Virus record (IMG/VR): IMGVR_UViG_3300022929_000037
Span: 1-54,131 of that record
Length of the DNA: 54,131 nt
Strand: one strand, 5' to 3'
Source: a virus
Lineage: Duplodnaviria; Caudoviricetes
Shown: piece after piece, positions 4,976-29,562 of the stretch
Layout: every line of letters starts with the position of its first letter
Position numbering within the stretch: the stretch's first letter is position 1
Notes under the pieces: model-generated
The model's database searches: none
What the model was told of the DNA's origin: nothing
Seen by the model: only the letters and a program-made list of their open reading frames with translations
Translations under genes and position numbers: made by a program

Positions 4976-5662
4976 ATGCAAGAAACTTTAATTACTTTAC
5001 TTGACAATGAGTTTGTTAAAATAAGTTACTTTGATAAAAAATCAGACGACGTTGTCCTGTCATTTTCTAGCACTCCAAGGCTGGCCCAGGGAGAAGAGAT
5101 TGCTGAAGAGCAGTTTGTTGGAACTCTCAGCAATAACAATGTAACTGGCATTTTTATCATAGACAAGCAGTCCTCTTATGGCAACAAGATTAACTTTGGA
5201 GAAATTGCTGCTACCATAGCTCCCATTATTATTAATGCAGAGAGGGTCCACGCTGTTGGGTATTGCATGGGTGGTTTTTTGGCAATACTAATGTCTAAAG
5301 TAATTAGCCTACACTCTGTTGTTGCCATTACCCCGCAGTGGAGTATTCACCCAGACATCCTGCCTGAGTCTAGCTACCTAAGAGAATTTACAAATCGTAT
5401 AGATAGCTGGGAGGTCATAAGTTTAGAGAACAGCTTTAATGATACAACGAAATATTTTATATTTAATAGTAATGATGTTGACGATCAGTATCAAATTCAA
5501 TTTTTCCCAGAACAAGAAAACCTAGAGATCTTTGAGTTTGGTCCAGCCACGGGTCACGACCTGCCAGAGGCTCTGGGTGGCAAGCTAGAAGAATTAATGT
5601 TTGCGTGTATTAATGATAACCCTAAAATGGTAGAAGATTTTATAGACTCTTATTATAAATAA
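4976..5662 (+). CDS. alpha/beta hydrolase fold protein with Cys nucleophile elbow
   Basis: VGYCMGG elbow, C-terminal GHDL. Confidence 0.6.
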   Translation: MQETLITLLDNEFVKISYFDKKSDDVVLSFSSTPRLAQGEEIAEEQFVGTLSNNNVTGIFIIDKQSSYGNKINFGEIAATIAPIIINAERVHAVGYCMGGFLAILMSKVISLHSVVAITPQWSIHPDILPESSYLREFTNRIDSWEVISLENSFNDTTKYFIFNSNDVDDQYQIQFFPEQENLEIFEFGPATGHDLPEALGGKLEELMFACINDNPKMVEDFIDSYYK

Positions 5663-6560
5663 TATTATTATAATAATTTCTTGCAATGATGTATTTGTCT
5701 TCCTGGCCCTGAAGTGACCAGAACTCTTCTGGTGTCATCTCAGCATCTTTAATTGCATACTTAGAGTAATCATTATAAATAATTGCTAGGGATAACTCGT
5801 GCCATGTTGCTGGATGCTCTGTTACGGCTGCAGATTTAAAACGATTCTGTTTATCTTCTACACCTTTCCAGTTAGTAAGCTGGTATTGCTGATCTGCCTG
5901 CCAGGTTATTTTTTTATTGAGCTGAAAAACTCTATACCCCGACATCAATAGTCTAAAGGATATCATAAAAATTTCTAGTGAGGTTTGTGAATATGGGTCT
6001 AATCCTACAAGCTCTATAAATGATTTAGGAAAAAGCATTTGTCCTGCTCTAGCAAAATAAATCTCGTGATATTCTGAGTAAGATTTTGACTTACCATTTA
6101 TTGGTTTTGGATGAACAATAGAATAATCATTCACAGGATAATCTTCTAGAACCATATCCCAACTTGATGTCATTATGCCATCTTCATACGGCTCAAGGGG
6201 CAGGATTGCTACCTTGTCTGTTCGATATCTGCCAGATATCTCTTTATAGGCTTTTATAAGAGTAGAGTCCCAGCCAGGTGCAAACTGATAATGAGAGTCA
6301 AGCTGCAAGTAAAAGTCTTCTCCCTGGTAAAGCTCCTTTGAAATGTTATATCTAACCTTTACAATTCCTGGACGAGTATCTGGGTGGTAGCTTATGGTCC
6401 TTACATTACTAAATTCAGACAGGTCTGGCTCTTCGTAATACTGAAGGGCAACCCCAAAGGTAATTCTTTCTGGCTTTATTGCATTATAAAGGGCAGACTT
6501 TATTGTGTCAATTAGTTGAGGATCATTGTAGGCTGCAATTGATATGAATATTGTTTTCAT
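5640..6560 (-). CDS. GT60-like (Skp1 Gnt1-type) GlcNAc transferase
   Basis: TIFISIAAYNDPQLIDTI, PERITFGV, FYLQLDSHYQFAPGWD. Confidence 0.75.
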   Translation of the reverse strand: MKTIFISIAAYNDPQLIDTIKSALYNAIKPERITFGVALQYYEEPDLSEFSNVRTISYHPDTRPGIVKVRYNISKELYQGEDFYLQLDSHYQFAPGWDSTLIKAYKEISGRYRTDKVAILPLEPYEDGIMTSSWDMVLEDYPVNDYSIVHPKPINGKSKSYSEYHEIYFARAGQMLFPKSFIELVGLDPYSQTSLEIFMISFRLLMSGYRVFQLNKKITWQADQQYQLTNWKGVEDKQNRFKSAAVTEHPATWHELSLAIIYNDYSKYAIKDAEMTPEEFWSLQGQEDKYIIARNYYNNIIYNKSL

Positions 6561-6561
6561 T

Positions 6562-7200
6562 TTACTCAAAGAACAACACGTCTGACGGGTTCTTCCCCTC
6601 TTCGCTAGGCACATACTCTAGAGTATCTTCTACATCAAACTGAAAAAACATAGGCATTGTATATCTGTGACCCGACTTTAGCTCTAGAATTTGGTGACGG
6701 TATCTGCTTGGAAACAAAAGCATGTCTCCAGCTTTAGGCTTTATCGTTAAATCAAACTCTGGAAATGATATCTCTCCACCCGAATAGTCGTCAGTAAGGT
6801 AGGATAGTGATGTGATATTATACTGATAGAATCTTTCTACAATGGCTGGTCCCCCAGAGGGAGTCTCTGAGTCGCTATGTACAGGCATTGAGCTACCAGT
6901 AAGCATGCCCCATTTTGTTAGGTGAGCTGGATTACGTGTGTATCCTTTAAACGGAATACCATACTTTTCTCCATAGTGCATAAGCACTTCAGCCATGGCG
7001 GCATTTTCGTAAAAAATTAGCAGAGCTCGTATTTCATGGTCAACATCCTCTTGTTTAAAGGTGCCATCATCATCAAGACTATCTAAATAATTAACAAATG
7101 TCTCTATATCTTTAGGGTGGACAAAGTTTTTTAGATGTGTAATCCCATCTTTAGAGTAGCCAATTTTATTATACTGCTCCATATAATTTTCATAGCTCAT
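6562..7200 (-). CDS. 2OG-Fe(II) oxygenase, prolyl-4-hydroxylase-like
   Basis: HSD, YLTDDYSGGEISF, KPKAGDMLLFPS, H, G-x-RY. Confidence 0.85.
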   Translation of the reverse strand: MSYENYMEQYNKIGYSKDGITHLKNFVHPKDIETFVNYLDSLDDDGTFKQEDVDHEIRALLIFYENAAMAEVLMHYGEKYGIPFKGYTRNPAHLTKWGMLTGSSMPVHSDSETPSGGPAIVERFYQYNITSLSYLTDDYSGGEISFPEFDLTIKPKAGDMLLFPSRYRHQILELKSGHRYTMPMFFQFDVEDTLEYVPSEEGKNPSDVLFFE

Positions 7201-7212: not shown

Positions 7213-7902
7213 TCATTCCTCATAGAGCATGTTGATGGTTTCGGGGAATGCTTCTTTAGTTAGTTTAAGAACTGCCTTTGCATACTCTTGGATTTCCCAC
7301 TGTGCGTCATGCTCAATACGCTGGTCAAGGAACGTAAGGATGCCCTGGAGCGAGACAGTCCACCTCCAACGCACATACATTCCATAAGCAGGCAGGAATA
7401 GCCTAGCGATCTCTGGTGCAATGCCGTCGTCCATTGCTTCGTGGTAGACCTGTGTGCCAGCCACGACAAGCTCACAAAGCTGCTCAAAATACTTCTGGCC
7501 AATCTCTATATCTACTGGCTCTCCAGAACCCTGCTTGCTGTTTTCTGGCTTGCTACGCCATTCATGTGGTAGTGGTATATAAAACTTCTCATCTTCAGTA
7601 ATGTAACGCCTAGAAGATTCATTCCAGCCATTCTGCTCATCTACATGCGTAGAGGCTACTGCATACTTCCACCATTGCCTTGCAACAAATAGTGGAGCAT
7701 AGACCTCGAAGGTAGCTGCTGCATGTCTGAAAGGACTTGTGTGCTGTTCTCTCAGCAAAAACTTTAATAGTTTTGCATCTCTTTCCTCAAACTCGCTTTT
7801 CTCCTTATCGTAAGACACCCTGGCAGCATTTACTACCGCCAGATCGTCTCCTAGCGTGTCTACGAGGCGTACGTAGCCCTCATCTAGAACATTCTCTTTC
7901 AA
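7213..7902 (-). CDS. thyX: FAD-dependent thymidylate synthase
   Basis: VNAARVSY, HTSPF, PLFVARQW, NESSRRY, ARLFLP, AQWEIQEYA. Confidence 0.9.
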   Translation of the reverse strand: MKENVLDEGYVRLVDTLGDDLAVVNAARVSYDKEKSEFEERDAKLLKFLLREQHTSPFRHAAATFEVYAPLFVARQWWKYAVASTHVDEQNGWNESSRRYITEDEKFYIPLPHEWRSKPENSKQGSGEPVDIEIGQKYFEQLCELVVAGTQVYHEAMDDGIAPEIARLFLPAYGMYVRWRWTVSLQGILTFLDQRIEHDAQWEIQEYAKAVLKLTKEAFPETINMLYEE

Positions 7903-8828
7903 AGCATTTCTCCTATTATTTCATCGATTGTTTTGGTTGGCTTCCAACCAATATGTGTGTTAATCTTAGTAATGTCTGGCACTCTTCTAGAAACATCCTC
8001 AAATCCCTTGCCATATGCTATGTCATAGTCTATAAATTGTACCCCAGACATAGACCTAGTAATCTTAATGACTTGATCCGCTAGGGACAAGATTGATGTC
8101 TCTTCATTGCCACCAATGTTGTAGGTTTCTCCGAATCTACCACTTTGCGTTAGTGCATATATTGCAGCAGCTGTATCCTCGACATGGCAAAAGGACCTAG
8201 TCTGAAGTCCTGAGCCATATATGGAAATGTCTTGGCCAGATGTTGCCTGCTTAATAAATCTAGGCAACACCATTCCATATTCTGTGTTTTGATTAGGGCC
8301 AACTGTATTAAAGATACGACCAGTAATAAACTTTAAGCCATTATTTTTTGCATAGTGCGATGCCAAGGACTCACCCAAGGCCTTTGACTGTGCATACGTC
8401 CATCTGGGACTTGTTGGTGTGCCAAAGATACTGTCTGTATCCTCTGTAAATGGCACAGCCATATTCTTACCATAAACCTCTGAGGTTGAAGCAAAGAAAA
8501 CAGGCTTGTTAAAAGATGATGCTGTTCGAAATACCATGTCGGCATTGTTGACATTGTTGTGTATAATTTTTGGGCAATTGTCCATAGTATTGTGAACCCC
8601 AATGCTAGCAGCTAGATGAATAATATAGTCAACTTCCCTGGCCTCAGCAATAAATGACTCATAGTTTGCAATGTCAAATGGCATGAGTCTAGCACTAGTT
8701 CCAGCAAGATTATCTTTATTACCAGAAACAAGGCTGTCCATTATAACAACCTCGTGTGAGTTTTGCTCTAAAAGCTTAACAAGACTAGAGCCTATAAACC
8801 CTGCTCCACCTGTCACCAAGTATTTCAT
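7899..8828 (-). CDS. NAD-dependent sugar epimerase / UDP-uronate decarboxylase-like SDR
   Basis: TGGAGFIG, STSEVYG, RWTYAQSK (YxxxK), QTRSFCHV, RRVPD. Confidence 0.9.
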   Translation of the reverse strand: MKYLVTGGAGFIGSSLVKLLEQNSHEVVIMDSLVSGNKDNLAGTSARLMPFDIANYESFIAEAREVDYIIHLAASIGVHNTMDNCPKIIHNNVNNADMVFRTASSFNKPVFFASTSEVYGKNMAVPFTEDTDSIFGTPTSPRWTYAQSKALGESLASHYAKNNGLKFITGRIFNTVGPNQNTEYGMVLPRFIKQATSGQDISIYGSGLQTRSFCHVEDTAAAIYALTQSGRFGETYNIGGNEETSILSLADQVIKITRSMSGVQFIDYDIAYGKGFEDVSRRVPDITKINTHIGWKPTKTIDEIIGEML

Positions 8829-9928
8829 ATTCCCTCGCTTACGTCTAGAAGATCAACATCGTATGTTGGTTGTGCACTATGCTTTATGACAATTACGCCT
8901 AGGTCTGTTTTAGGTTTAAGTTTTGAAGAATTATCGTATACATCAATGCCATATGCCTCAACGCCTAGGTCAGTCAGCTTGTCAAGAACTTTTTGTCCAA
9001 CAGAGTTGTTCTGACTTGGATGATTGGGTTTATAAGACATTCCTATAACTGCAATTCTTTTATTCTTTATACTGCCAAGAGTTTTTTCAATCTTGCTCAC
9101 AATACGATCTGGTGCACTATCGTTATAAGCCAATGCTTGCTCTATGAGTGGGACACTTCCTATGCTACTAAGAAGATAGGCTGGGTCCACTGGTATGCAA
9201 TCTCCTCCAATACCAGCACTTGGATAGAAAGGCATAAAACCAAATGGCTTTGTCGCTGCAAGGCTTACTACGCTAGAAGTATCTATCCCATTGTTTTGGC
9301 ATGCCTCATTAAATTGATTAATTAGGGCAATGTTGACTAACCTATAAGAGTTTTCTAGAAGCTTTGCGGCTTCTGCTTGTTCCAGGGTCTCGGCTAGCTT
9401 AGTGGTAGACACCAATGTCTGATAAAACTCATTAGCTATAGCCCTGTCTACGGATGTTAGGCCTGCAACTATTCTGCTAATATCAGAATACTTGAGGGAG
9501 CTGCCTGGGTTAATTCTTTCTGGAACATGAGCTAAATAAAAGGTATCTCTGTTGGTAAGTTTATTAAGCATTGGTAGAATCTTTGTTCTAGTAAAGCCCA
9601 GACCTACTGTAGACTCAATAACAACTAATGTCCTAGAACAGATAAAGGGCCCAGCACCCTCGATGGCAGACTTGATGTTAGAATAGTCTGGTTTATTATT
9701 TTTAAGATTGGTTGGTACAGCAAAGACAACAACGTCACAACACTGCAGATCAGAGTATTTAGTTGTTGCCTTATAGTTTTTATCAGCAAACTTTTTATTT
9801 AGTTGTTGTGTCAGTTTTTGGTTAGTATCAATACCATGCACTTCATAGCCAGCATCTAGGCAGGCGGTAGCAAGCTCTTGACCCACATACCCCTGACCCA
9901 CAATGCCAACCGACTTAAAACTATACAA
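8825..9928 (-). CDS. UDP-N-acetylhexosamine dehydrogenase (WecC/WbpA-like)
   Basis: GQGYVG, VPT, IESTV, PERINPG, KLLENSYR, GIGGDCIPVDP. Confidence 0.85.
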   Translation of the reverse strand: MYSFKSVGIVGQGYVGQELATACLDAGYEVHGIDTNQKLTQQLNKKFADKNYKATTKYSDLQCCDVVVFAVPTNLKNNKPDYSNIKSAIEGAGPFICSRTLVVIESTVGLGFTRTKILPMLNKLTNRDTFYLAHVPERINPGSSLKYSDISRIVAGLTSVDRAIANEFYQTLVSTTKLAETLEQAEAAKLLENSYRLVNIALINQFNEACQNNGIDTSSVVSLAATKPFGFMPFYPSAGIGGDCIPVDPAYLLSSIGSVPLIEQALAYNDSAPDRIVSKIEKTLGSIKNKRIAVIGMSYKPNHPSQNNSVGQKVLDKLTDLGVEAYGIDVYDNSSKLKPKTDLGVIVIKHSAQPTYDVDLLDVSEGI

Positions 9929-10337: not shown

Positions 10338-11033
10338 TTAGTGCAAAACCAGCGTAAACGGTTCTGGGAAATGCATTTTATGCTTATCGTATAACTCTGA
10401 TGCCCTACACCTATAAGTTTTTGCAGAAGGTTTGCCCATGCTGTGTAAGATTGTTGCCCATCTATCTCCACCAAATATATCCGCAATTTCACTAAAGACT
10501 ACCTTCGCCCATTCTAAATCTGGAATAACAATAAAAAGTATAATTGGCATTTCTTGTGAAATTGTTTTAAGACTCTGAATCTTTTTAGAGTAATCTTCCC
10601 ACTTAACAATTACGCCACCAAAGAAAAACATGTCGCTTGTAATTCCAGATAATACTATTGCAGACAGTAGAGATGAAGTGTTTGGGGTTATCCCGATGTG
10701 AATGTTTTTGGCAACAAGATAGCGAATGAGTCCCCCATATGGGTCAACTATATTGGGGAATCCATCATCACTAATAATTACAATATTTTTATCTATATTA
10801 TTTTCTATGTATGCCATAGAGGTTTGAAGGTCAACCTGGACTGATCCTGAGTCCAAAGTTTCAGCTACATAGAACATCTTTTTGTTGCTAGTATCTACCC
10901 CTAGCTCACCCATCACAAAATCAACTGTTGGCTTTGTTTCACAGAACATGATATCTGCATTACGAAATAACTCTATTTGCTCTGCAGAAAAACCATTTGG
11001 TGTAGTGCTAAAAGATGATAGTGTAACTGGCAC
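10338..11033 (-). CDS. RsmI-like tetrapyrrole-methylase-fold SAM methyltransferase, paralog 1
   Basis: ADIMFCE, ISDDGFPNIVDP (cf. RsmI VSDAGTPxIxDP), SAIVLSG, FFFGG. Confidence 0.7.
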   Translation of the reverse strand: MPVTLSSFSTTPNGFSAEQIELFRNADIMFCETKPTVDFVMGELGVDTSNKKMFYVAETLDSGSVQVDLQTSMAYIENNIDKNIVIISDDGFPNIVDPYGGLIRYLVAKNIHIGITPNTSSLLSAIVLSGITSDMFFFGGVIVKWEDYSKKIQSLKTISQEMPIILFIVIPDLEWAKVVFSEIADIFGGDRWATILHSMGKPSAKTYRCRASELYDKHKMHFPEPFTLVLH

Positions 11034-11345: not shown

Positions 11346-12332
11346 TTAAAATATATCTCTAATTCTAGTTACTTTAGTGTGGTCTTTACCGAAGTCAGAG
11401 AACAGTGCCTTGTCTGTCTCTCTCTGAACAATCTTTCTTGACCAAGAGTATCCTGCATCTCCGCCCCAAGCTAGCCACATGACGTATCCCTTAGATGGGT
11501 TGGCCGAGTTACCCCAGTCCTTACCCTTCTTGTCTACCTCATGGCGTGAGAAGTAGGAATACATTCTCTTTACAGTGCTTAGCGAGAGCGTCTCTCCATT
11601 AGCCAGCTGTCTAGCTCTAGTCCATCCCACGGCAGTGCCTGCTCCCTTAGCCTTACCGTCTTCCTTAAACTTAATCGCTTTACGAGCTGCGGACCTGGCA
11701 CCAGCAGGAGGAGAGTATCCTTCAGCCTTGCCCAAAATATCGTTCTCATAAACTACATCATCTCCATCTTCCCATAGATCATCAGCCTTATTAGCTGGGA
11801 CACAGTTTGGAACCATGCGTCCATCTTTTTCTTTCATGCCTCTCTGGACATAGCCTTCCCAGCATGCCTTATCCATGCTAGAGCAATACTTGCAGTCTTC
11901 ACAGGCAATACCTTCAGACTTGCAGGTCTCACAACCACAGTCAGCTTTGCCAAGGCCTGGCTCTTCATTACTTCTACCTACAGTTTCCCAGATAGAATCA
12001 CTTTTAATTTCATTAGACATACTCGTATCTCCCGTTTTCGTCTTTGGCACTGGGGTTACGAACTCTTCTTCAGAAGCTGGGTGTGGCTGTCCAGTTGCAG
12101 ATGGCATTCCATTTGCGTCCGTCAGTGACTTCTCTGGCCACTCCTCTGGATTCTTAATCCCTACGTTTTCATTAGTAACTTCAGCCTTTTCTTCAGACTG
12201 ATTGATAGCATAAATTTGTGCCTGAGCCTCTTCAGCGGTGCTGTGGCAACCCATTACGGTTTTGTCATCATCTTTGAGCACAGGGTAGCCACTACATCCG
12301 TAGCTTCCCTTTGCCCCAACACTATAAGGCAC
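11346..12332 (-). CDS. modular phage hypothetical protein, possibly head-associated
   Basis: Short modules (GCHST..., CWEGY...VPNCVP, RARQLANG...WLAWGGDAG) separated by acidic linkers. Confidence 0.55.
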   Translation of the reverse strand: MPYSVGAKGSYGCSGYPVLKDDDKTVMGCHSTAEEAQAQIYAINQSEEKAEVTNENVGIKNPEEWPEKSLTDANGMPSATGQPHPASEEEFVTPVPKTKTGDTSMSNEIKSDSIWETVGRSNEEPGLGKADCGCETCKSEGIACEDCKYCSSMDKACWEGYVQRGMKEKDGRMVPNCVPANKADDLWEDGDDVVYENDILGKAEGYSPPAGARSAARKAIKFKEDGKAKGAGTAVGWTRARQLANGETLSLSTVKRMYSYFSRHEVDKKGKDWGNSANPSKGYVMWLAWGGDAGYSWSRKIVQRETDKALFSDFGKDHTKVTRIRDIF

Positions 12333-12576: not shown

Positions 12577-13284
12577 TTATAACATAGATTCTGGGTGTAT
12601 GACCAGGGTAAATGGATCTGGAAAATGCTTTGAATGCTTAGAGAAAAGCTCTGATGCCTTGCATCTATAGGTTCTGGCATTCAACTCTCCCATATTGTGC
12701 ATTATTGTAGACATTCTGTCAGGGCCAAAGGTATCAGATATGCTATCAAATAAGGGCTTAGATTTTTCTAAATTATCTACCACTATAAGCAGTATAGTCG
12801 GCATCTCTAGAGAAATATTTTTCAAAAGGGCCAGCCTATCTGAATAGTCTTCCCACCTAACCAAAATCCCACCAAATACAAATGCATTGCCATCTATCCC
12901 AGACAATATTGTTGCTGACATCACAGCCGAAATGTTTGGTGTTATGTCTACCTGTATATTTTTTTCTACTAACAAGGCTATAACCCCAGCATATGGATCT
13001 GTTATATTCGGAAAACCTTCATCACTTACGATTACTATATTTTGATTAATATTATTTAATATAATATCTAGTGCATCGTAATCATCCAAGAAATGGTCCT
13101 CGCCCACAGATTGAATTGTTGAAATAATTCTTTTACCTTCTATGTCTATCCCAAGCTTATCCATCACTTCTGTAAAACGATCATGTGTTTCACAAAATAC
13201 TATGTCGGCATTTGCAAATAGCTCAACTTGTTCTTGAGAAAAGGCTTTAGGATATAGGCTAAATGATGATACGGTTATGCTCAT
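12577..13284 (-). CDS. RsmI-like SAM methyltransferase, paralog 2
   Basis: VSDEGFPNITDP; shares WEDYS, TYRCxASEL, HFPxPFTLV with 10338..11033. Confidence 0.7.
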   Translation of the reverse strand: MSITVSSFSLYPKAFSQEQVELFANADIVFCETHDRFTEVMDKLGIDIEGKRIISTIQSVGEDHFLDDYDALDIILNNINQNIVIVSDEGFPNITDPYAGVIALLVEKNIQVDITPNISAVMSATILSGIDGNAFVFGGILVRWEDYSDRLALLKNISLEMPTILLIVVDNLEKSKPLFDSISDTFGPDRMSTIMHNMGELNARTYRCKASELFSKHSKHFPDPFTLVIHPESML

Positions 13285-14906: not shown

Positions 14907-15484
14907 TGTACTGTATTACCTAACTTAAATACTTCGGCACTAGCTGTTTCAATAAATGACCCCCTCCAGGCATCGTGATGAATGATACCAGAATACCAGC
15001 TAAAACCAATAAAATCCTTGTATATGTTTATTGAGCTAATCTTTTCATCTGTATAACTACTGATGTCAACAAAAATTTCTGGCTCAAATTGAGAATATTT
15101 ATTGTGGTATGGATGAGATGACATATACCAAAGTTCTTTAGGCTGCTTTCTTGCCAAGATATTTCCTAGCTCGTAACATGCTCGATGATCTTGATGCCAG
15201 TCCTCTTTCCAATGAGTTATTATTCTATTAATATTAAGATTTTCGATAGCATCCTCAACATCTTTAACTAAGCTAGAAGACACAATCAGATCTCTTTTGT
15301 TTCCAATATCGACAATATTAAATCCTAGGTTTTCTGCAGACTTGGTAAGCAAATCTTTTTGAGGAACTTCGGTAACCATCACCATATTGAAAACAGTATG
15401 TCCCTCTGCTATCCAGCGAGCTACGCTGCCTCCACAAGACATCTCTAGGTCATCGGGATGTGCAGACAAAACTAAAATATTCAT
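14903..15484 (-). CDS. PIG-L/LmbE family N-deacetylase
   Basis: AHPDDLEMSCGG, HQDH; TATAAT 7 nt upstream of MNILV. Confidence 0.88.
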   Translation of the reverse strand: MNILVLSAHPDDLEMSCGGSVARWIAEGHTVFNMVMVTEVPQKDLLTKSAENLGFNIVDIGNKRDLIVSSSLVKDVEDAIENLNINRIITHWKEDWHQDHRACYELGNILARKQPKELWYMSSHPYHNKYSQFEPEIFVDISSYTDEKISSINIYKDFIGFSWYSGIIHHDAWRGSFIETASAEVFKLGNTVQ

Positions 15485-15528
15485 GAATTTAATTATACCA
15501 GAAACAAAATAGGGTATAATTGTTATAC

Positions 15529-22325: not shown

Positions 22326-22991
22326 CTATTCTGTGCCGTCAGACATGCGTGGATTGCTTAGGTGGTGATACCAGTGTGGCATTGCATACCTGGTTCCCTC
22401 AGTTACTGGCATAATCTCATGAACGTATAGGAAGTTAGAAGGAAAAAAGACTATGCTTCCAGCTTCTGGCTTAATCTTGGTATTTGATTGCCTAAACTCT
22501 ATCTCACCACCAACGTAGTTATCGTTTAGGTAGCTAACTGTTGAGATGAGCCTGCTGCTTATACCTAGATCTTGGTGTGCAGGAAGATGGCCCTTGTCGT
22601 ATGCCTCGTATCTAAGGATACCGTCCATAGGCTCCTCTGACTTTACTGCATTTGCTGCAAACGGATATAGCTGTGTTGAGTAGTGGTGAAAAGCTTTATC
22701 TAGTGAGCCATACAATGCATCTGCAATTTGCAAAAGTTCTTGACGATAGTAGTCATGCTCTTGAATCTGGTCATGCCTCCAAATAAAAAATTTGTAATTA
22801 AATGGCTTTTCCATGTGGCTATCGTGCCATGGCCTCCAGTCATTAACTGCTGTAAAATATCCCTCATGCTCATTTTGTTTAAACCGTTCAGCAAGCTTAT
22901 CTACCAAGTCTACTATATACTCAGTATCTGGAATGATATTTTTGTAATATACTAGTCCAAGATCCTTTACTTCAAACTCTATTTGATCCAT
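22326..22991 (-). CDS. 2OG-Fe(II) oxygenase, prolyl-4-hydroxylase-like
   Basis: HQD, YLNDNYVGGEIEF, FFPSN, HEI, GTRY. Confidence 0.87.
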   Translation of the reverse strand: MDQIEFEVKDLGLVYYKNIIPDTEYIVDLVDKLAERFKQNEHEGYFTAVNDWRPWHDSHMEKPFNYKFFIWRHDQIQEHDYYRQELLQIADALYGSLDKAFHHYSTQLYPFAANAVKSEEPMDGILRYEAYDKGHLPAHQDLGISSRLISTVSYLNDNYVGGEIEFRQSNTKIKPEAGSIVFFPSNFLYVHEIMPVTEGTRYAMPHWYHHLSNPRMSDGTE

Positions 22992-23970
22992 TCTTCTCCT
23001 GTTTTGCTAGATATTCTATTATATCAGAAAAGGGCTGATAATATTTTCTAGCACTGACTATTGACATATAGTGATCGTGCATTCCTATTGCCTTATAAAA
23101 GTCTTCTGGTGATAATTCTGAGTCAATCTTATAGGGTCCAAGGTTATATAAAAAGAAACGTATAGTCTCATAAAGAACTTCTGGACTGTCTTCTACTGCA
23201 GCAAATTGTTTATTTTTTTCAAACTTAAATGGATTCCAGTTATGATATGCGTATACCCTCTTATATGATCTGTAGGCCTCCCAGCCCCTCATAAATATTA
23301 AATAAGACTGTAGTGGCTCGTCGTTAAACATTTTTACATCTTCTATAAAGAATAAGTTATGCTCAAAATATTCCTTGGGAGCAAAGAACAGGTCCATCGA
23401 TGTATAGTATGTTTTGACAAAGTCTTGGTGTGGAGATTTTACTAAGGGAGAACTTACATTAGTTAAAAAGTCGAGCTCTCCGTTTGGCTCTATAGAGTAA
23501 TCAAACTGCGTTATGTGGTGCAGTGCCACCTCTCCATCGCTTCTACAATTGCATGGCTCTGTTACTGGAGGCTCGCTGTTTGACATTTGACAAGAGATTA
23601 CGACCTTATCGTTACCAGTTTTTAGCCTTAGCTCATTATAGTCGTCAAGAATAAAAACATCCCATCCGCTAGTAAATGTCATGTGAGCATCTATAGATAA
23701 CACATAGTCATAATTTGTTGACAGCGATGCTAGGTCATTTCTTACCTGAATTAGTCCTGGCCTTTCTGGGCCATAATCAATTATAGTAAGATTGTTGTAT
23801 ATAGATAAGTCTAGGTTGATACGCTGATGCTGAAGCCCTACAGCAAAATATATCCTTTCTGGATACGTTGCTTTGTCTATTGCTCCCTGTATTGTTCCAA
23901 TTAGTGATGGATCTTCGTATGATGGTATGATGACCAATATTGTTTTATTATTTGATAACCTTTGTTCCAT
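22972..23970 (-). CDS. GT60-like glycosyltransferase, paralog 2
   Basis: TILVIIPSYEDPSL, PERIYFAV, SIDAHMTFTSGWD. Confidence 0.72.
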   Translation of the reverse strand: MEQRLSNNKTILVIIPSYEDPSLIGTIQGAIDKATYPERIYFAVGLQHQRINLDLSIYNNLTIIDYGPERPGLIQVRNDLASLSTNYDYVLSIDAHMTFTSGWDVFILDDYNELRLKTGNDKVVISCQMSNSEPPVTEPCNCRSDGEVALHHITQFDYSIEPNGELDFLTNVSSPLVKSPHQDFVKTYYTSMDLFFAPKEYFEHNLFFIEDVKMFNDEPLQSYLIFMRGWEAYRSYKRVYAYHNWNPFKFEKNKQFAAVEDSPEVLYETIRFFLYNLGPYKIDSELSPEDFYKAIGMHDHYMSIVSARKYYQPFSDIIEYLAKQEKNGSNRV

Positions 23971-25387
23971 ATTCTTGTTCCCATTTTATAACGTCCGCCT
24001 CATCATTAAGAAGTGGCTGGCCCTTAATATTAAGGCTAGTGTTTAGTAGTACTGGAACCCCAGTCTCTTCATAAAAACGTCTTAGGAGGGCATACAGGCC
24101 TGGATGCTGACGCTTATTTACGGTCTGAACCCTAGAAGTTCCATCCGCATGAACCACAGAAGGTATTTCACTTGGCCTCTTGCATACAAAAGTGTATTGC
24201 ATATATGGTGATGCTGCCTTCATATCAAACCAGTCATTAGCAAATTCCTCTAGAACCACTGGGGCAAATGGCCTAAACAGCTCTCTCTTCTTAATCTTAT
24301 TGACCTTATCCTTAATGTTTGGATCTCGTGGGTCTGCCAGGATACTTCTGTTGCCTAGTGCTCTTGGACCATATTCTGCCCTACCGTATACAACTGGTGC
24401 AACTCCATCAGATAGGATTGCTGCTAGTGCCTGCTCTACTGGATACTTCCTCTTAGGCATATCATATCCCAAGTATGGTCCCCTCCAGGTAAGGTGCTTT
24501 CCATAGGCTGCAGCTGCTGCTCCCAAAGAGCTTCCTGCATCTCCAGGGTTTGGCATAATCCAGACATCAGAGAACATGTCCCATAGCTTCGTATTAGCAG
24601 AAGCGTTTAGTGCACAGCCACCCATAAACACTAGGTTATGCTTGCCAGTCTTATTAACTGCAAACTCCATAAACTCCATAAGCCTTTGCTCATAGACCCT
24701 TTGAACTGCTGCTGCAATATCAAACTTATTTCTGTCATTGACCTCTTCATTCCAATCAAGAATGCCTTTGTGAAAGTTATATCTTTGACCCTTAATGCTG
24801 TCAAAGTATGAGTTTACCTTGCTGTAGTACTTGTTTGCTTTGCCATATGCTGCCATGCCCATCATGATATACTCTTCTTCGTTTGGCTTGAGCCCAAGCA
24901 GCTGTGTGAATGCAGAGTAGAAAAGACCAAAGCTAAATGGATAATTCTTTTTGTATACCTGCTTAATTCTATCGCCTTCACCAACCCAAATGGTAGAGGT
25001 ATTCCATTCTCCTATGGCATCCAATACCACAATTGTAGCATCCTGGAATCTGCTTGTGTAATAGCCTGCAGCTGCATGTGAGTAGTGGTGCTTAAATGTT
25101 TTTACTGGGAGATCTTTGAGCTCAGGATGATTGATATACCTTGGGCTGTCTCCCCCAAAGCCCCCACTAATTGCAATTCTACTTTTCTTTAATAGTGGCT
25201 TTTCATAATAGGCAATCATGTCTGGCTTGCCATATCTCAATGCATCTTCAATTAGTTTATCATTAGTAAACCAATCATTCTTTTCTTTACTATACCGCTC
25301 AGCGTGCCCAGCAAAAAGAATATTGCCGTTCTCAATTAGCGACACTGAAGCATCATGTGTTGTCTCATTAATTCCAAGAATTTTCAT
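23948..25387 (-). CDS. carbamoyltransferase (NodU/CmcH family), paralog 2
   Basis: HDAS, HHYSHA, EYIMMGMAAYG, GPRALGNRS, RPFAP, LNTSLN. Confidence 0.92.
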   Translation of the reverse strand: MKILGINETTHDASVSLIENGNILFAGHAERYSKEKNDWFTNDKLIEDALRYGKPDMIAYYEKPLLKKSRIAISGGFGGDSPRYINHPELKDLPVKTFKHHYSHAAAGYYTSRFQDATIVVLDAIGEWNTSTIWVGEGDRIKQVYKKNYPFSFGLFYSAFTQLLGLKPNEEEYIMMGMAAYGKANKYYSKVNSYFDSIKGQRYNFHKGILDWNEEVNDRNKFDIAAAVQRVYEQRLMEFMEFAVNKTGKHNLVFMGGCALNASANTKLWDMFSDVWIMPNPGDAGSSLGAAAAAYGKHLTWRGPYLGYDMPKRKYPVEQALAAILSDGVAPVVYGRAEYGPRALGNRSILADPRDPNIKDKVNKIKKRELFRPFAPVVLEEFANDWFDMKAASPYMQYTFVCKRPSEIPSVVHADGTSRVQTVNKRQHPGLYALLRRFYEETGVPVLLNTSLNIKGQPLLNDEADVIKWEQEYGTKVIK

Positions 25388-25470
25388 TAATAGATATACT
25401 TTCTAGGCTTAAGTGCTTTACGATTTTTCCACTTCCAAAATCGAAATTTTATTTGCTTAATTATTTTCAT
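25387..25470 (-). CDS. 27 aa basic peptide coupled to carbamoyltransferase (not in ORF track)
   Basis: MKIIKQIKFRFWKWKNRKALKPRKYIY; TAATG overlap with carbamoyltransferase start. Confidence 0.55.
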   Translation of the reverse strand: MKIIKQIKFRFWKWKNRKALKPRKYIY

Positions 25471-26269
25471 GGTATTTATTATACATTAATTCTGCAGCAT
25501 ATTTATGGAATCCAGTTCCCCAGTGGGCACCATCTTCTGCATAAAAATAGTTTGGGCTGCCATCGTCATTATCATATAGGTAGCTCTCCAGATTAAGATC
25601 GTCGAAGTTATAAAAAGTTTTAAAGTTAAACTTATTGAATATATCCCTCATTGCTGGAGAATTGTATGATGTTGATACAAGGTTTATGCCATATAATTCC
25701 ATAAGCTTTTCAAACATTGAGTATGTCTCATACAGATAAGGGGTCATGCTGTCGATTATTTCTAGAACATCCTGCGTAAAGCTAGTATTATGATATGAAT
25801 ATTTATCTGGGTTAACTACTGCATCGTAGTAGCCGTCTAATTTTTGGTGCAGCCTGATTCCCCTAAAGACATCTGGAAACATTATAAATATTGTATCTGG
25901 CTTGCCATAAGTATCTATATATCTCAGAATTAAGGATATGATGCCGTTAAAGCTTGCACCTTCCCTACCAATATTTATTGCATGTATTTCTTTGCCTATG
26001 TCTTCAGATAGCTTACTGGCTAACAGATTAGGCCAAATATTACTGTCATCGCTTATTCCAGTTCCAAAGGTATTGGAGCATCCAGCAAACAGCATGTGCA
26101 CTTTGCTGGGGTTGACAACAAACTCTTCTGACCTATACCTTAATGAGTTCAGGACAAGGCTGCTATCTCCTTGATCATTTTTAGGCATCTTACCGTCAAA
26201 GCCATACAGGCGATCCTGCTCAGTAGGACCAAACCTGTCATCGAAGTTTTTAAGATAGTTGTAGTTCAT
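25457..26269 (-). CDS. SGNH/GDSL-like protein, paralog 1
   Basis: FAGCSNTFG, NIGREGAS, YGKPD, DGAHWG. Confidence 0.65.
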   Translation of the reverse strand: MNYNYLKNFDDRFGPTEQDRLYGFDGKMPKNDQGDSSLVLNSLRYRSEEFVVNPSKVHMLFAGCSNTFGTGISDDSNIWPNLLASKLSEDIGKEIHAINIGREGASFNGIISLILRYIDTYGKPDTIFIMFPDVFRGIRLHQKLDGYYDAVVNPDKYSYHNTSFTQDVLEIIDSMTPYLYETYSMFEKLMELYGINLVSTSYNSPAMRDIFNKFNFKTFYNFDDLNLESYLYDNDDGSPNYFYAEDGAHWGTGFHKYAAELMYNKYHENN

Positions 26270-26272
26270 TAG

Positions 26273-27133
26273 CTAGCTGCCCTTCCATGATTCAGCCCCC
26301 GTAAGCAACTCGTAGAATTTGCTTGCATAAAAATCTTGTTCTGCAATACCTGGATGGGAGTCATCCATAGCCTTAAGCATAATATCTTTATATTTACCAT
26401 TATACACTAAGCCAAACCTATAGAGGTGATCTAGAAACATGTCCTCATCTATTTGATATAAATATTTTATTTTATTTCTGCCATCATCTTTGCTTGCCCT
26501 AGCGACAGAGAAAGATCTGTCCCATGTCATTGCAAAGGCATTAATGTTATTGTTTTCTATAAAGCGAATTGCAGCCTCTACCCCGTTCCACATGTCCCTT
26601 TCTGGCTCTGGAAAAAGAATAAATAAGTAGTCTGGTTTGCCGTATCGAATAATATACTCATCGATTAAATTGATAATATCTGACATAGATGCGGAAGGCT
26701 TTCCTAGATTAAAATATCCTGATGTCTTGGTGCTATGGCTTATAGACGTATAAAGTTTGTGTGCCCATAAGAATTCTTCTGGCATAGAATCTCCAAAAGT
26801 TAAAGAACATCCAGCAAAAAGAATATGCTTTCCAGAGTGGTCTGCAGTAAACTCATCACAACGAAAGCCCTCAGAGTTAATTTTATAAAAATCTTTGCTA
26901 CTTAGCCCTAGCTTATTTAAATATTTTTTAGTTACAAAAAATCCATAGGAGTCTACCCAAGGACGTGAAACAGACTTATGAAATCGTTTTTCTGAGTTTT
27001 CTTTTTCATTTAGGCCAAGCTCCGTGAGCTCTGCTAGGATCAGTTCTTTGACCTGATCAAACTCTTTGTGGTATTTTTCATGGCGGCTCATGTAAACTTC
27101 ATTAAGCTTCTTTGGCAAGCTAAATAGGTCCAT
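26273..27133 (-). CDS. SGNH/GDSL-like protein, paralog 2
   Basis: FAGCSLTFG, NLG, YGKPD, DDSHPG. Confidence 0.65.
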   Translation of the reverse strand: MDLFSLPKKLNEVYMSRHEKYHKEFDQVKELILAELTELGLNEKENSEKRFHKSVSRPWVDSYGFFVTKKYLNKLGLSSKDFYKINSEGFRCDEFTADHSGKHILFAGCSLTFGDSMPEEFLWAHKLYTSISHSTKTSGYFNLGKPSASMSDIINLIDEYIIRYGKPDYLFILFPEPERDMWNGVEAAIRFIENNNINAFAMTWDRSFSVARASKDDGRNKIKYLYQIDEDMFLDHLYRFGLVYNGKYKDIMLKAMDDSHPGIAEQDFYASKFYELLTGAESWKGS

Positions 27134-28097
27134 GCAAATCTCTCCAAATATTATATGCAAAGTTATAATAAAAGTCGTGTTCTGCAATTCCTGGGTGAAC
27201 AATATCGAATGCCCTCAACATAAATTTTGCAAATTTATTATTCTTGTTAATCTTTATGAAGGTCATCATGTGGGCCTGGAGTTCTTTTTCAGCAAATTGA
27301 TATAGAGTATTATTCGTCTGCTGTCTTGGGTCAAGCCAGGGGCTTTGGTAAAACACATCATTAAAATTAGGATTTTGATCAAGGTACGCACCGCCCTTGA
27401 AAGAGTGTATGTCCCAAGAAAACATTATAAGTTTGATATTGTTTGTCTCTGCATATTGAATAAGAGCATTGTGCATTGGAAGAATTACAGAGTGCAGACT
27501 CTCTATTGGAATGCCTGCGTCAATTGACCTCTCTAGGTCTGGGAAATTAATAAAGATATATTCTGGATTTCCGTATAGCTCAATATACTTAAAGACTTGA
27601 TAATAAATATCTAAATGGTTAAATCCTGGTCCAGCAACATTGTAATATCCGCTGGTAGGAACTTGCTTACTAATAGATTTATATACCATTTTAGACCAGG
27701 TTAAGTCAATGGGTAGCCCGTCACCAAAAGTTATGGAGCATCCAGCAAACAAAATATGAAGTTTGTCGTGTGAGTCGGAGAACTCGTCGCACCTTAGCCC
27801 GTCTGAGTTTAAGTGGTAAAAATTATCTATTGTCTCGCCAAAGGTCTCAAGATTCTTTTTAGTAAAGTAAAGATTGAATGGAGACATTAAGGCTGGCATT
27901 AGCTTTGAGTATTTCTGAGACTTACTCTCATGGACTTTGCTAAGCGGAAAATTTGTTTCTATGTAGTCAAAAAGCTCTTCCGCTTTATCAAACCATTCCG
28001 TGTAGTCTTCTCCATATTGCTGGTAAAACTCCAGAGTTGACTGGGAAGGATTGAAACCACTTAAATCTTTATACGCCTTGCTCATGTTTTTGAGCAT
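27120..28097 (-). CDS. SGNH/GDSL-like protein, paralog 3
   Basis: FAGCSITFG, YGNPE, DIVHPG. Confidence 0.65.
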   Translation of the reverse strand: MLKNMSKAYKDLSGFNPSQSTLEFYQQYGEDYTEWFDKAEELFDYIETNFPLSKVHESKSQKYSKLMPALMSPFNLYFTKKNLETFGETIDNFYHLNSDGLRCDEFSDSHDKLHILFAGCSITFGDGLPIDLTWSKMVYKSISKQVPTSGYYNVAGPGFNHLDIYYQVFKYIELYGNPEYIFINFPDLERSIDAGIPIESLHSVILPMHNALIQYAETNNIKLIMFSWDIHSFKGGAYLDQNPNFNDVFYQSPWLDPRQQTNNTLYQFAEKELQAHMMTFIKINKNNKFAKFMLRAFDIVHPGIAEHDFYYNFAYNIWRDLHGPI

Positions 28098-28707
28098 GTG
28101 CTACCGCATATGGGTGACGCATGCACTCCCAATCTAACTGATTGCTTAGCTGTTTCCCACCAGTAAAGTCTGGATCTGCATGGTTTGGGATGCTGGTGTG
28201 CATATACAAACAAGTATGCCTTCTTCCAGACGTTACTTCCGTAATTCCATGGATGTGTTCAGAGCCAGCACTTGGGAAGAATACTGCAGAATATTTGCGT
28301 GGCTTATACTCAAAACCCTGATTCGGGAAATAAATAACTCCACCCTCATACTCGCTTGGGTCATTAAGATAGATTATTGTGCTCCACTCAATAAAAGGTT
28401 CTGGATCTTGTGCATCCATGTGTAGTCCACCAGAGCTTCCAGCTGTCCACATAGAGCCAAATGCCTTAAAGACATATATTGGATTAACAAAACCGTTAAG
28501 CTCTTTATGAACCTCGTTTGACTTATCTCCATACTTTACAAGCAAGCTCATAATTCTATCATTATATGGAAATGCTGTTCCTCCAAACCTTTCCTCATAA
28601 TATTCTGGATACGGGTTTGTCTCAGATGGTGACATCTGCTCCTCGATCATTACAGCAGCATCTTCTGGTGTAATAAAGTTATCAATTATATGTATACGAT
28701 GCGTCAT
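28069..28707 (-). CDS. 2OG-Fe(II) oxygenase, prolyl-4-hydroxylase-like
   Basis: HMD, IYLND...YEGGVIYF, FFPS, HGITEVTSGRR. Confidence 0.87.
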   Translation of the reverse strand: MTHRIHIIDNFITPEDAAVMIEEQMSPSETNPYPEYYEERFGGTAFPYNDRIMSLLVKYGDKSNEVHKELNGFVNPIYVFKAFGSMWTAGSSGGLHMDAQDPEPFIEWSTIIYLNDPSEYEGGVIYFPNQGFEYKPRKYSAVFFPSAGSEHIHGITEVTSGRRHTCLYMHTSIPNHADPDFTGGKQLSNQLDWECMRHPYAVAHAQKHEQGV

Positions 28708-28731
28708 ACTTCCTCCTCTACTATTATAGCA

Positions 28732-29562
28732 CTAATAGATTGCCTTAACTGATCCAATAAACCTTTCTCCACCAACGTCTACAATCTTTAAATCATAAGG
28801 GTCATAGGGAACATCATCTTGCTGGTAAAAAATTGGCTTAATTAAATCTGTATCAATGCCTACGCACGTTCCCCAGGCCTTTCCAATCTCAGACTTTAAG
28901 GATTCTACAACAGAGTTATATTTATGCTCTAAAGAAAACGGAACATATAGCTCTTCCAATGGCCTGAATTCTTGTATATCATCAATAATATCTGATGGCG
29001 GGGACCATAAATCAATTTGCTTCTTGAAAATATCTAAAGATAAGTATTCATTTTCTCCGTAAAACTTAAGGTGCACTGGATAGTCTAGAGACTTTATTAA
29101 GTTGCTAGAAGAAAACAATAGCTCACTATTGGCATAAGATGTTTTTTCAAAAGTTTCTGATGTTTCATAACTGGCCTCAAGAAAATGCTTATCTTTAATG
29201 CTTAGCGATGGCTTACCATATCCAGAAATTATTCCAGGATTTTCCTTAAAAAATTCAACCAGCCTGGAGTCCCAGCCTTCTGATAAATAAATCCTGTCTG
29301 ATAGTATTAAGGTATACTCAGAGTGTATTTCTGGCATATGAATTGCGGTCTGCTTGAAGCTACACGGACTATTGAGTTTGTCCCAAAAAATATGAGAGTA
29401 TTCAAGGTTATTTAGATGAGAAAACTTATCTTTTCTAAGCATTGGGTGCTGATCATACACAGTAACGTGAACCGAACCAGATGAGGTATTAAACACATTC
29501 TCTACTATATCGAGAAGTTTTGGGTTTTTATAAGAATATATAACTACACTAATACTAATCAT
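28732..29562 (-). CDS. divergent GT-A glycosyltransferase resembling the GT60-like paralogs
   Basis: ISVVIYSYKNPKL, LSEGWD, FYGENEYLSL; DxH motif degenerate. Confidence 0.5.
   Translation of the reverse strand: MISISVVIYSYKNPKLLDIVENVFNTSSGSVHVTVYDQHPMLRKDKFSHLNNLEYSHIFWDKLNSPCSFKQTAIHMPEIHSEYTLILSDRIYLSEGWDSRLVEFFKENPGIISGYGKPSLSIKDKHFLEASYETSETFEKTSYANSELLFSSSNLIKSLDYPVHLKFYGENEYLSLDIFKKQIDLWSPPSDIIDDIQEFRPLEELYVPFSLEHKYNSVVESLKSEIGKAWGTCVGIDTDLIKPIFYQQDDVPYDPYDLKIVDVGGERFIGSVKAIY

Follow-up and report, generated by a model that had tools for sequence, protein, structure and literature searches.

Paired prolyl-hydroxylase-like and GT60-lineage glycosyltransferase genes in an uncultured tailed phage suggest sequential hydroxylation and glycosylation

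Three dioxygenase genes each adjoin a glycosyltransferase gene

We analyzed a 54,131-base stretch of DNA from an uncultured tailed phage (the whole of IMG/VR record IMGVR_UViG_3300022929_000037, hereafter the window) and found that it encodes three 2-oxoglutarate (2OG)-Fe(II) dioxygenases of the prolyl 4-hydroxylase (P4H) type, each of them next to, and predicted to be translationally coupled to, a putative GT-A-type glycosyltransferase (GT). Two of these transferases are members of the PF11397/GT60 family, and the third belongs to a sister family. We read the pairs, with an about even chance of being right, as a system that would hydroxylate a protein, O-glycosylate it at the new hydroxyl, and then tailor the sugar. 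The six open reading frames (ORFs), all on the minus strand, form the three neighboring pairs that had been described in the initial annotation of this DNA:

6562-7200, minus strand: oxygenase 1 (pair 1), P4H-type 2OG-Fe(II) dioxygenase, 212 amino acids (aa); PF13640, 37.6 bits
5640-6560 (ORF 5640-6614), minus strand: GT60-like transferase 1 (pair 1), 306 aa from the ATG at 6560; PF11397, 68.1 bits
22326-22991, minus strand: oxygenase 2 (pair 2), P4H-type dioxygenase, 221 aa; PF13640, 59.0 bits; ortholog in the complete relative G001, 51% identity
22972-23970, minus strand: GT60-like transferase 2 (pair 2), 332 aa; PF11397, 34.9 bits
28069-28707, minus strand: oxygenase 3 (pair 3), P4H-type dioxygenase, 212 aa; PF13640, 32.2 bits
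28732-29562, minus strand: A2GT (pair 3), sister-family GT-like protein, 276 aa; degenerate metal motif S88-D89-R90

All three oxygenases passed the cut-off of the Pfam model PF13640 (2OG-FeII_Oxy_3, 27 bits), and transferases 1 and 2 exceeded that of PF11397 (GlcNAc, 21 bits), a family that we take to correspond to CAZy GT60. The initial annotation had called every oxygenase P4H-like and every transferase GT60-like; the profile searches bore this out for the three oxygenases and for two of the transferases, but the third transferase has no direct GT60 match and lacks the DxH motif.

The two genes of each pair are tightly joined. A single nucleotide separates the stop and start codons of pair 1 (TAA-a-ATG), and because of this junction we place the start of transferase 1 at 6560 as the probable one, in agreement with the lengths of its homologs (306–311 aa). 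In pair 2, 22326-22991 overlaps 22972-23970 by 20 nucleotides (nt), and pair 3 has a 24-nt spacer that contains a GAGGAGG-like ribosome-binding site. The oxygenase gene precedes the GT gene in pair 1 and follows it in pairs 2 and 3. When gene order was shuffled, the probability that all three oxygenases abut one of the three GTs was 1.3e-4 for the 85 ORFs of the window and 1.5e-3 for the 44 ORFs of the modification island described below; counting a fourth oxygenase-like ORF (15767-16336) changed these values to 7.5e-4 and 5.3e-3, respectively. The suspicion that so many oxygenases might adjoin GTs only by chance is thus poorly matched by the shuffles, with p between 1.3e-4 and 5e-3. No oxygenase-GT60 fusion emerged from a search for longer proteins, which gave two, neither with PF13640, and which is weak evidence on this point.

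The oxygenases resemble peptidyl-prolyl hydroxylases

The three window oxygenases are paralogs of one another. When they were aligned with 19 relatives, the HxD...H iron triad (H108, D110 and H169) was invariant in 22 of 22 sequences, and R179, the basic residue for 2-oxoglutarate, was kept in at least 90% of them. Comparing the profile of this alignment with solved structures returned prolyl hydroxylases as the best matches. The closest relative was the "Prolyl 4-hydroxylase, alpha subunit domain protein" 3itq/5hv0, presumably from Bacillus anthracis (E = 6e-15, nearly full length), followed by a PKHD-type hydroxylase (E = 1e-12), P3H1 (E = 2e-12), the prolyl 4-hydroxylase 5c5t (E = 2e-11), PHD2 (E = 3e-9), a Naegleria Tet-like dioxygenase (E = 5e-8), a viral-type lysyl hydroxylase/glycosyltransferase (E = 1e-7), and LH3 (E = 1e-6). 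The oxygenases appear closest to the peptidyl-prolyl branch, and the reaction predicted from their sequences is most probably prolyl hydroxylation.

The fourth, more distant 2OG-oxygenase-like ORF (15767-16336, plus strand) scored 22 bits with PF13640, below the cut-off, and has no GT neighbor. It matched phrog_274 (E = 2e-31; label "DNA endonuclease V", probably a misnomer) and, weakly, the FlmC family, and it is conserved in several related loci.

Two transferases are GT60-like and the third is a remote homolog

Transferases 1 and 2 are paralogs (phmmer E = 8e-28). The DxH motif (D88-x-H90), presumably the metal-binding motif that defines this GT-A lineage, is invariant in 22 of 22 GT60-like sequences, including both window copies (D-A-H in transferase 2). 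A2GT itself matched no Pfam and no PHROG family. An exhaustive search yielded 132 representatives of its family, and a 72-sequence A2GT profile aligned with the GT60-like profile over 193 columns (hhalign probability 97.5%, E = 6e-12); individually, 22 of the 72 members matched PF11397 and 14 matched PF00535. These relationships suggest that A2GT is a sister family to the GT60 lineage, GT60-like by remote homology only, in which catalysis has possibly been altered or lost. Neither the GT60-like profile nor the A2GT profile matched any PDB sequence at E values up to 10.

Pairs 1 and 3 are conserved in related loci

Related loci were chosen through their GT, A2GT or c36 genes (c36 being a small zinc-ribbon ORF discussed below), with genes called as longest ORFs; because the loci were selected in this way and include many near-copies, counts of distinct sequences are also given. 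A scan of viral contigs with the single sequence of transferase 1 detected nothing, whereas use of the GT60-like alignment led to 597 candidate stretches, of which 511 were confirmed and the best 80 kept.

On a first pass, an oxygenase abutted GT60 on the same strand in 12 of these 80 viral loci, which fall into three contexts. Context A has the order ThyX ... oxygenase-GT60, and ThyX precedes pair 1 in the window and in 12 related loci. In context B, GT60 lies among small genes shared with the 17.9–20.3 kb region of the window, without an oxygenase, and two complete relatives that carry a GT60 of this other clade (G004 and G005) have no PF13640 match. Context C, also without an oxygenase, consists of tandem 420-aa GT60 (PF11397) genes beside large proteins, a carbamoyltransferase, and a methyltransferase+HtrL_YibB protein. 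The context C loci (L018-L033, L045, L047, L050-L053, L067, L068 and L074-L077) have neighbors of 1,000–1,500 aa, plus a GT34-like protein.

Oxygenase adjacency follows the phylogeny of the transferases. In a GT60 tree of 92 rows, built by a quick method, some branches are long and support values are SH-aLRT alone. Of its 15 rows with an adjacent oxygenase, 13 belong to one clade of 18 (support 99) that includes both window GT60s; the remaining two are in one further clade, and none of the 72 other rows is oxygenase-adjacent. The adjacency label changes 5 times on this tree, compared with 14.2 times in shuffles (0 of 500 as low). A FastTree phylogeny of 73 distinct oxygenases places the three window copies in three separate groups:

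28069 oxygenase group, 21 rows: A2GT directly upstream in 21/21
6562 oxygenase group, 4 rows: GT60 abuts in 4/4
22326 oxygenase group, 16 rows: GT60 abuts in 2/16 (window and G001 only)

Conservation of the pairing in related phages, which the initial annotation had put forward as a check, was therefore found for pairs 1 and 3 but not for pair 2. In the remaining 14 rows of the 22326 group, the oxygenase has a 28069-type oxygenase or a carbamoyltransferase as its neighbor and still lies in the cassette described below.

An A2GT-centered scan with a reduced alignment returned 26 loci, in 23 of which an oxygenase directly follows A2GT by a strict count (18 of 21 distinct sequences); by eye, this number rises to 25, with L192 the sole locus that has no following oxygenase. 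In G001, a relative with a complete, terminally repeated sequence of 124,540 bases whose core proteins are 66–88% identical to those of the window, the order is A2GT, oxygenase, oxygenase, GT60, and M23 peptidase, while three c23 genes, a carbamoyltransferase, and GT60 stand between the two cassette oxygenases of the window. The order has been rearranged, and each cassette oxygenase still touches a GT.

The same type of oxygenase also occurs together with transferase domains of the protein type in other loci. L057 has a PF13640 protein of 416 aa immediately beside, but not fused to, a 914-aa O-FucT+PF11397 fusion. In L061, an O-FucT+PF11397+GT_PLOD protein of 1,519 aa is encoded ahead of two carbamoyltransferases, an oxygenase-like ORF, and a DUF6065 protein. 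A further locus (L021) has the order oxygenase, DUF6065, GT60, oxygenase, GT60.

A proposed hydroxylate-then-glycosylate pathway

GT60 enzymes are described as polypeptide alpha-GlcNAc transferases (PMC8724618). In the Skp1 pathway, as outlined in PMC8724618 and PMC9472816, a dedicated prolyl 4-hydroxylase acts first and a GT60 enzyme then acts on the hydroxyproline (Hyp); the enzymes of such pairs are often fused, and a dual-function P4H/GlcNAc-transferase is cited (PMC8724618). The comparison with the protist enzymes PhyA and Gnt1 that had been drawn for this phage is apt, in that the two protist enzymes act in sequence.

We propose that, in the cytoplasm of the infected cell, the dioxygenase would use O2 and 2-oxoglutarate to hydroxylate a protein side chain, most probably that of proline, and that the neighboring transferase would add a sugar, probably an N-acetylhexosamine (HexNAc) from a UDP-sugar, to the new hydroxyl. 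The sugar might then be tailored by a PIG-L-type deacetylase, NodU-type carbamoyltransferases, SGNH-like proteins, and possibly more transferases. Separate pairs would serve different acceptor sites. The order of the reactions, the sugar and, above all, the acceptor are what we infer here. The pattern of one hydroxylase to one transferase, present in several paralogous copies, favors a protein acceptor, as do the similarity of the oxygenases to peptidyl-prolyl hydroxylases, the linkage with c36, and the example of the protists; the earlier suggestion that this acceptor is a virion or host protein, however, draws no support from the present data. In a more specific and doubtful version of the proposal, aquatic phages would run an O2-dependent, Skp1-like modification in which P4Hs mark small proteins (c36) and perhaps the Pro-rich linkers of lysis or envelope proteins, a GT60-lineage enzyme adds HexNAc to Hyp, and the sugar is then de-N-acetylated, carbamoylated, and acylated.

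A zinc-ribbon ORF linked to the oxygenase of pair 1

The best candidate for an acceptor or adaptor in the pair 1 lineage is a small ORF that follows GT60 in the context A loci:

4610-4819, minus strand: c36, zinc-ribbon ORF (CxxC...CxxC) with the motif Y-G-[YF]-P, 69 aa; candidate target or partner of the oxygenase

A hidden Markov model (HMM) of c36 matched the window and 10 of 167 loci, precisely those of the pair 1 kind (oxygenase-GT60). No Pfam family matched c36 above its cut-off, the only matches being sub-threshold ones to zinc ribbons, and there was no PHROG match. Proteins of the c36 type are 60–70 aa long; among metagenome proteins we found 106 clusters of them, one of which (from one JGI source) is named an RNA polymerase subunit RPABC4/Spt4-type protein; the rest are unnamed or "hypothetical protein".

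In a c36-centered scan of 22 loci, the gene directly upstream of c36 was an oxygenase in 8 and a GT60 preceded by an oxygenase in 10. An oxygenase lay within three genes upstream in 19 of the 22 and within the fetched 4 kb in all 22. The link of c36 is thus to the oxygenase first; seven loci have an oxygenase and then c36 with no GT60 between them. Across 107 c36 sequences, Y21, G22, P24, and an L-G-G motif are as constant as the four cysteines; P24 is present in 106, T25 in 95, and P26 in 75. The c36 motif was found nowhere else in the window or in G001.

The pairs lie within a conserved cassette of sugar-modifying genes

The pairs belong to a minus-strand run of sugar and modification enzyme genes, the modification island, that extends from ∼4.6 to 31.7 kb of the window and also encodes the following proteins:

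31022-31699, minus strand: 31022-type protein, 225 aa, preceding c9; no Pfam or PHROG match
29555-31035, minus strand: c9, two DUF6065-like paralogs (251 and 241 aa) at the head of the cassette
25457-28097, minus strand: c23, three paralogs, possibly SGNH/GDSL-like (a lead only); no Pfam match
23948-25387, minus strand: NodU/CmcH-type carbamoyltransferase of the cassette; PF16861, 181.8 bits; PF02543, 140 bits
21487-22290, minus strand: M23 peptidase-LysM protein encoded directly downstream of pair 2, its linker rich in Pro and Lys; PF01551, 77 bits; PF01476, 65 bits
16891-17853, minus strand: possible further transferase, weak ("O-FucT-like"); phrog_2644 glycosyltransferase, E = 1e-4; GT11, 14.8 bits, and O-FucT, 12.2 bits, both below cut-off
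14903-15556, minus strand: PIG-L family protein (GlcNAc-conjugate de-N-acetylase type); PF02585, 50.9 bits; BshB1 model, E = 1e-12, below cut-off
13281-14906, minus strand: second NodU-type carbamoyltransferase; PF16861, 184.2 bits; phrog_1601, E = 4.5e-130
8825-9928, minus strand: nucleoside diphosphate (NDP)-sugar dehydrogenase, upstream of ThyX and pair 1; TIGR03026, 257.6 bits (cut-off 189.8)
7899-8828, minus strand: short-chain dehydrogenase/reductase (SDR) epimerase/dehydratase, upstream of ThyX and pair 1; PF01370, 183 bits

Across the 26 A2GT loci, a conserved cassette comprises the 31022-type protein, one or two c9 proteins, A2GT, one or two oxygenases, c23, a carbamoyltransferase, often GT60, and an M23 peptidase. 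A homolog of the 31022-type protein occupies the same place in 26 of 26 loci, and c9 directly precedes A2GT in 23 of 26. One c9 copy (29555-30310) matched phrog_7084, and weak DUF6065 matches (E = 0.02 and 0.099) and an Atlas lead were obtained. We considered c9 as a hidden dioxygenase and ruled it out (hhalign probability of 0.07% against the oxygenase profile); it has no PDB relative. The feature and structure neighbors of c23 in the Atlas include SGNH/GDSL hydrolases (TM 0.57–0.67), and c23 recurs beside oxygenase, GT, and carbamoyltransferase genes in related loci. The cassette carbamoyltransferase, present in most cassette loci, matched the NodU model at E = 1.6e-52, under the equivalog cut-off. 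Members of the NodU/CmcH family O-carbamoylate sugars.

The initial annotation had proposed that further enzymes in the window could extend the glycan. Sugar-nucleotide and tailoring genes are indeed present, but the "O-fucosyltransferase-like" member, 16891-17853, matched its families only below threshold. The island includes a PIG-L-type de-N-acetylase and therefore fits a GlcNAc-type sugar; as a whole, its tailoring genes fit a HexNAc-type sugar, and a free glycan fits them equally well.

G001 and many cassette loci also have the M23-LysM gene at this place, and one could speculate that the Pro/Lys-rich linker of the encoded protein is a modification target. Equally speculative as a target is a Pro-rich repeat protein of G001, the window homolog of which has a coiled coil instead. 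The two homologs (34639-36276, minus strand, and G001 40849-42180) have conserved ends and swapped middles, the middle being a long coiled coil in the window and ∼200 residues of PEPT-like Pro-rich repeats (15 Pro per 30 residues) in G001. A search of the window ORFs for a collagen-like target found no G-x-y run of more than four repeats.

Two TP_methylase-fold paralogs (10338-11033 and 12577-13284, minus strand; mutual E = 3e-81) that are weakly RsmI-like also lie in the island. Between them is a Cys-rich 328-aa protein (11346-12332; phrog_2859), which occurs in 30 related loci, often near GT60.

At the head of the cassette, 31938-33248 (minus strand) encodes a 436-aa protein with a lipobox-like LVSGC near its N-terminus, followed by a Ser/Pro/Glu-rich stretch. 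A perfect 12/12 sigma-70-like site (33348-33320) lies upstream of this gene and is one of four perfect TTGACA-17-TATAAT sites, the others being 10333-10305 and 6511-6483 on the minus strand and 4429-4457 on the plus strand; promoter and terminator scans of the window gave counts no higher than in shuffles. No minus-strand terminator-like site occurs from 34.5 to 21 kb, so a single long transcript may span the cassette.

Alternative acceptors and evidence against protein modification

Several observations weigh against the modification of a protein by coupled enzymes. The match of the oxygenase profile to Tet-like enzymes extends over their full length. A stricter recount, with L017 replaced by its whole record and L057 included, found an abutting oxygenase in 14 of 80 viral GT60 loci, or for 14 of 93 distinct GT60 sequences, and the 22326 group retains its GT60 neighbor in just the 2 of 16 rows noted above. 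Of the five oxygenases of G001, only two have a GT as their direct neighbor (p = 0.015 for the whole genome and 0.083 for the island). The window A2GT has S-D-R in place of DxH; within its family, Asp is kept at the DxH position in 55 of 72 members, and 32 of the 72 have Asp at the residue that follows. Given the missing DxH and this incomplete conservation of Asp, A2GT may be non-catalytic.

PF11397 is also common in bacteria (499 of 532 candidate stretches confirmed), and a P4H-type oxygenase was found within 5 kb in just 2 of the best 80 bacterial loci. In Acidobacteriaceae (L092 from Granulicella sp. and similar loci), the PF11397 gene (230 bits) is part of a conserved block: on one flank are a GT9 heptosyltransferase, an HldE-like PfkB+cytidylyltransferase kinase, and an epimerase, and on the other DUF4254, TPR, and CofD proteins; an ATP-grasp protein is also in the block. 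This setting resembles that of lipopolysaccharide (LPS) core synthesis and suggests that some members may use LPS-type acceptors. Because bacterial members occur in this LPS-core-like setting and rarely beside an oxygenase, membership in PF11397 alone does not imply a polypeptide acceptor.

The c36 motif is likewise found elsewhere, which speaks against P24 as a site of modification. In Lachnospiraceae phages, a protein of 192 aa begins with a c36-like domain that contains Y-G-Y-P-S; seven gut-phage records match at 37–41% identity. In the one record examined (L215; PV036410.1, gene at 3498-4076), there was no oxygenase, GT60 or A2GT profile match within 3.5 kb. Since the motif occurs there without an oxygenase or GT, the conservation of Y-G-Y-P may be structural.

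Foremost among the other readings, and one to which we give limited credence, is that the acceptor is not a protein: a sugar, lipid or small molecule would be hydroxylated, the GT60-like enzymes would build or decorate a glycan such as an envelope or secreted glycoconjugate, and the carbamoyl-, acyl- and methyl-transferring enzymes would tailor that glycan. Such an activity would suit an island dominated by carbohydrate enzymes (the NDP-sugar dehydrogenase, the SDR, two NodU-type proteins, PIG-L, and the SGNH-like leads), the LPS-core-like context of bacterial PF11397, the phage loci of another clade that pair tandem GT60 with HtrL_YibB, GT34-like and methyltransferase domains, and a cassette that adjoins an M23-LysM cell-wall enzyme. 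However, the best solved relatives of the oxygenases are all peptidyl-prolyl hydroxylases, and only two GT clades show the link to an oxygenase, which is missing from the LPS-like contexts. Several one-to-one hydroxylase-GT pairs would also be unexpected for a single glycan, and the link to c36 would be left unexplained.

Hypermodification of phage DNA, which we consider unlikely and less likely than protein modification, would have the dioxygenase oxidize thymine or another base and the GT-A enzyme glycosylate the resulting hydroxyl, as in 5mYOX-GT systems and base J. Phage TET/JBP-type dioxygenases are described as working with GT-A (JGT-like) or GT-B transferases (bioRxiv 10.1101/2023.12.21.572611; PMC13229309), and PMC13229309 mentions thousands of contigs with a dioxygenase that has no TET/JBP annotation. 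The conserved position of ThyX before pair 1, in the window and 12 related loci, and the Naegleria Tet-like match (E = 5e-8) point the same way. Against this, PF12851 (Tet_JBP) scored 11 bits in the window and 11.5–21.2 bits in three relatives, with a cut-off of 34.9, and PF13640 scored 61 bits at the same ORF as the PF12851 match. No PF00145 (C5-methyltransferase) match was found at E up to 0.1 in the window and three relatives (of which G001 is complete), a result that concerns the 5-methylcytosine route and not the thymine route. JGT is placed outside GT60 in PMC9472816, and the 5-hydroxycytosine pathways described in PMC13326640 use ThyA homologs and GT-B enzymes. Three to five separate hydroxylase paralogs, each with its own partner, would also be unexpected for DNA modification.

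That the two gene types are not functionally coupled, and as common cargo of a mosaic island are adjacent by accident or shared regulation, is very improbable: the island is indeed mosaic, the window and G001 do not share one gene order, the abutment of pair 2 is not conserved, and the within-island p for G001 is 0.083, but partners are conserved in 21 of 21 and 4 of 4 cases among sequences down to ∼25–30% identity, stop and start codons overlap or lie 1 nt apart, the GT clades are specific to oxygenase neighbors, and shuffling of the window gave p values of ∼1e-4 to 5e-3.

Comparison with known systems

Under our preferred reading of sequential protein hydroxylation and O-glycosylation, the closest counterpart is the Skp1 pathway (PhyA and Gnt1, and the Pythium fusion). 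Both pair a P4H-type dioxygenase with a soluble PF11397/GT60 transferase without a signal anchor, the two being tightly linked as genes in the phage and often fused in protists; in the Skp1 pathway the sugar is extended or altered by further enzymes, as we propose for the phage. Unlike the Skp1 pathway, the phage has several paralogous pairs per genome, one of them with a sister-family GT that lacks DxH, and its putative tailoring genes encode carbamoyltransferase, deacetylase, and SGNH-like proteins rather than the GT2/GT74/GT77-type enzymes of glycan extension. The phage oxygenases also score better against bacterial collagen-type P4H than against PHD2. Skp1 is a eukaryotic protein that a bacterial phage is not expected to meet.

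LH3 and the "Procollagen lysyl hydroxylase and glycosyltransferase" 6ax6/9nev, which we take to be the mimivirus enzyme L230, follow the same hydroxylate-then-glycosylate logic, with a 2OG dioxygenase joined to a GT-A domain. The oxygenase profile matches enzymes of the 6ax6/9nev type and LH3 (E = 1e-7 and 1e-6, respectively), but prolyl hydroxylases match better. The fusion of GT_PLOD to PF11397 in L061 recalls the LH3 type; GT_PLOD (PF25342) was found by Pfam only in that locus and had no match among the window proteins. LH3- and 6ax6-type enzymes hydroxylate lysine in collagen repeats, whereas the window ORFs contain no collagen-like run longer than four G-x-y. In published descriptions, the 5mYOX (TET/JBP)+GT clusters and the base J system (JBP and JGT) likewise have a 2OG dioxygenase beside a GT-A-fold GT, and the hydroxyl is formed before the sugar is attached. 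The window differs from both in that its oxygenases are of the PF13640 and not the PF12851 type, it has no cytosine methyltransferase, and its GTs are of another family. In mycobacteriophages, virion glycans are carried by the C-termini of subunits of the capsid and the tail tube (Freeman et al. 2023, as cited in PMC12619734); there too, phage transferases glycosylate phage proteins in an actinobacterial host setting, and the account in PMC12619734 that bears on these glycans mentions no hydroxylase step.

No report pairing GT60, PF11397 or Gnt1 with phages was found in the literature searched, which consisted of main texts mostly from outside the subscription journals. The same literature contained no mention of DUF6065 and, on virion glycosylation, only general remarks besides the mycobacteriophage work. 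In a search of 50,697 deposited phage records, transferase 1 matched only two jumbo Xanthomonas phages, at 24–26% identity, and A2GT matched none. The coupled clade is thus absent from deposited phage genomes, and the module from cultured phages.

Protists and a giant virus already provide examples of the chemistry and of such enzyme pairs: Hyp-linked glycosylation by a P4H and a GT60 enzyme takes place in the protist cytoplasm, and a related lysine version exists in animals and a giant virus. What is new is that a phage has them, that it has several pairs, and that a sister family of GTs, a cassette, and a zinc-ribbon partner go with them. If our reading is correct, the pairs would bring a new kind of post-translational modification to phage biology; in the more specific and doubtful version, this would be the first Hyp-O-glycosylation in the bacterial virus world, with a type of glycan as yet undescribed on any protein. 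The oxygenase, the transferase, and the 69-aa zinc-ribbon protein would provide a simple three-gene test case. The system would also bear on the origin of the eukaryotic O2-sensing Skp1 module. In the doubtful version it could be a source or sibling of the P4H-Gnt1 module, and the phage could tie its development to O2 or 2-oxoglutarate levels. Were the acceptor DNA or a glycan, the pairing of enzymes would still be new for such chemistry. The analysis also defines several unnamed families that travel in the conserved cassette (A2GT, c36, the DUF6065-like proteins, and the 31022-type protein).

Genome and host

The window has a completeness estimate of 47% and represents about half of an uncultured tailed phage genome of roughly 115–125 kb. 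Its genes include those of the large terminase subunit and of a module for replication (DNA polymerase, primase, a UvsX/RecA-like protein, and ribonucleotide reductase). Two sequence matches hint at a host that is possibly a member of the Actinomycetota: a homolog of transferase 1 (5640-6560) carries the source name "Candidatus Nanopelagicales bacterium", and a megablast search of 25 kb against deposited phages returned only two short ThyX matches, to Streptomyces phages.

A few genes downstream of pair 1 lies a gene for a pyrimidine dimer DNA glycosylase (3493-3972, minus strand; PF03013, 66.8 bits). Inside the modification island is an Hsp20/alpha-crystallin gene (16442-16837, minus strand; PF00011, 66.5 bits) with a homolog in G001 at 49% identity.

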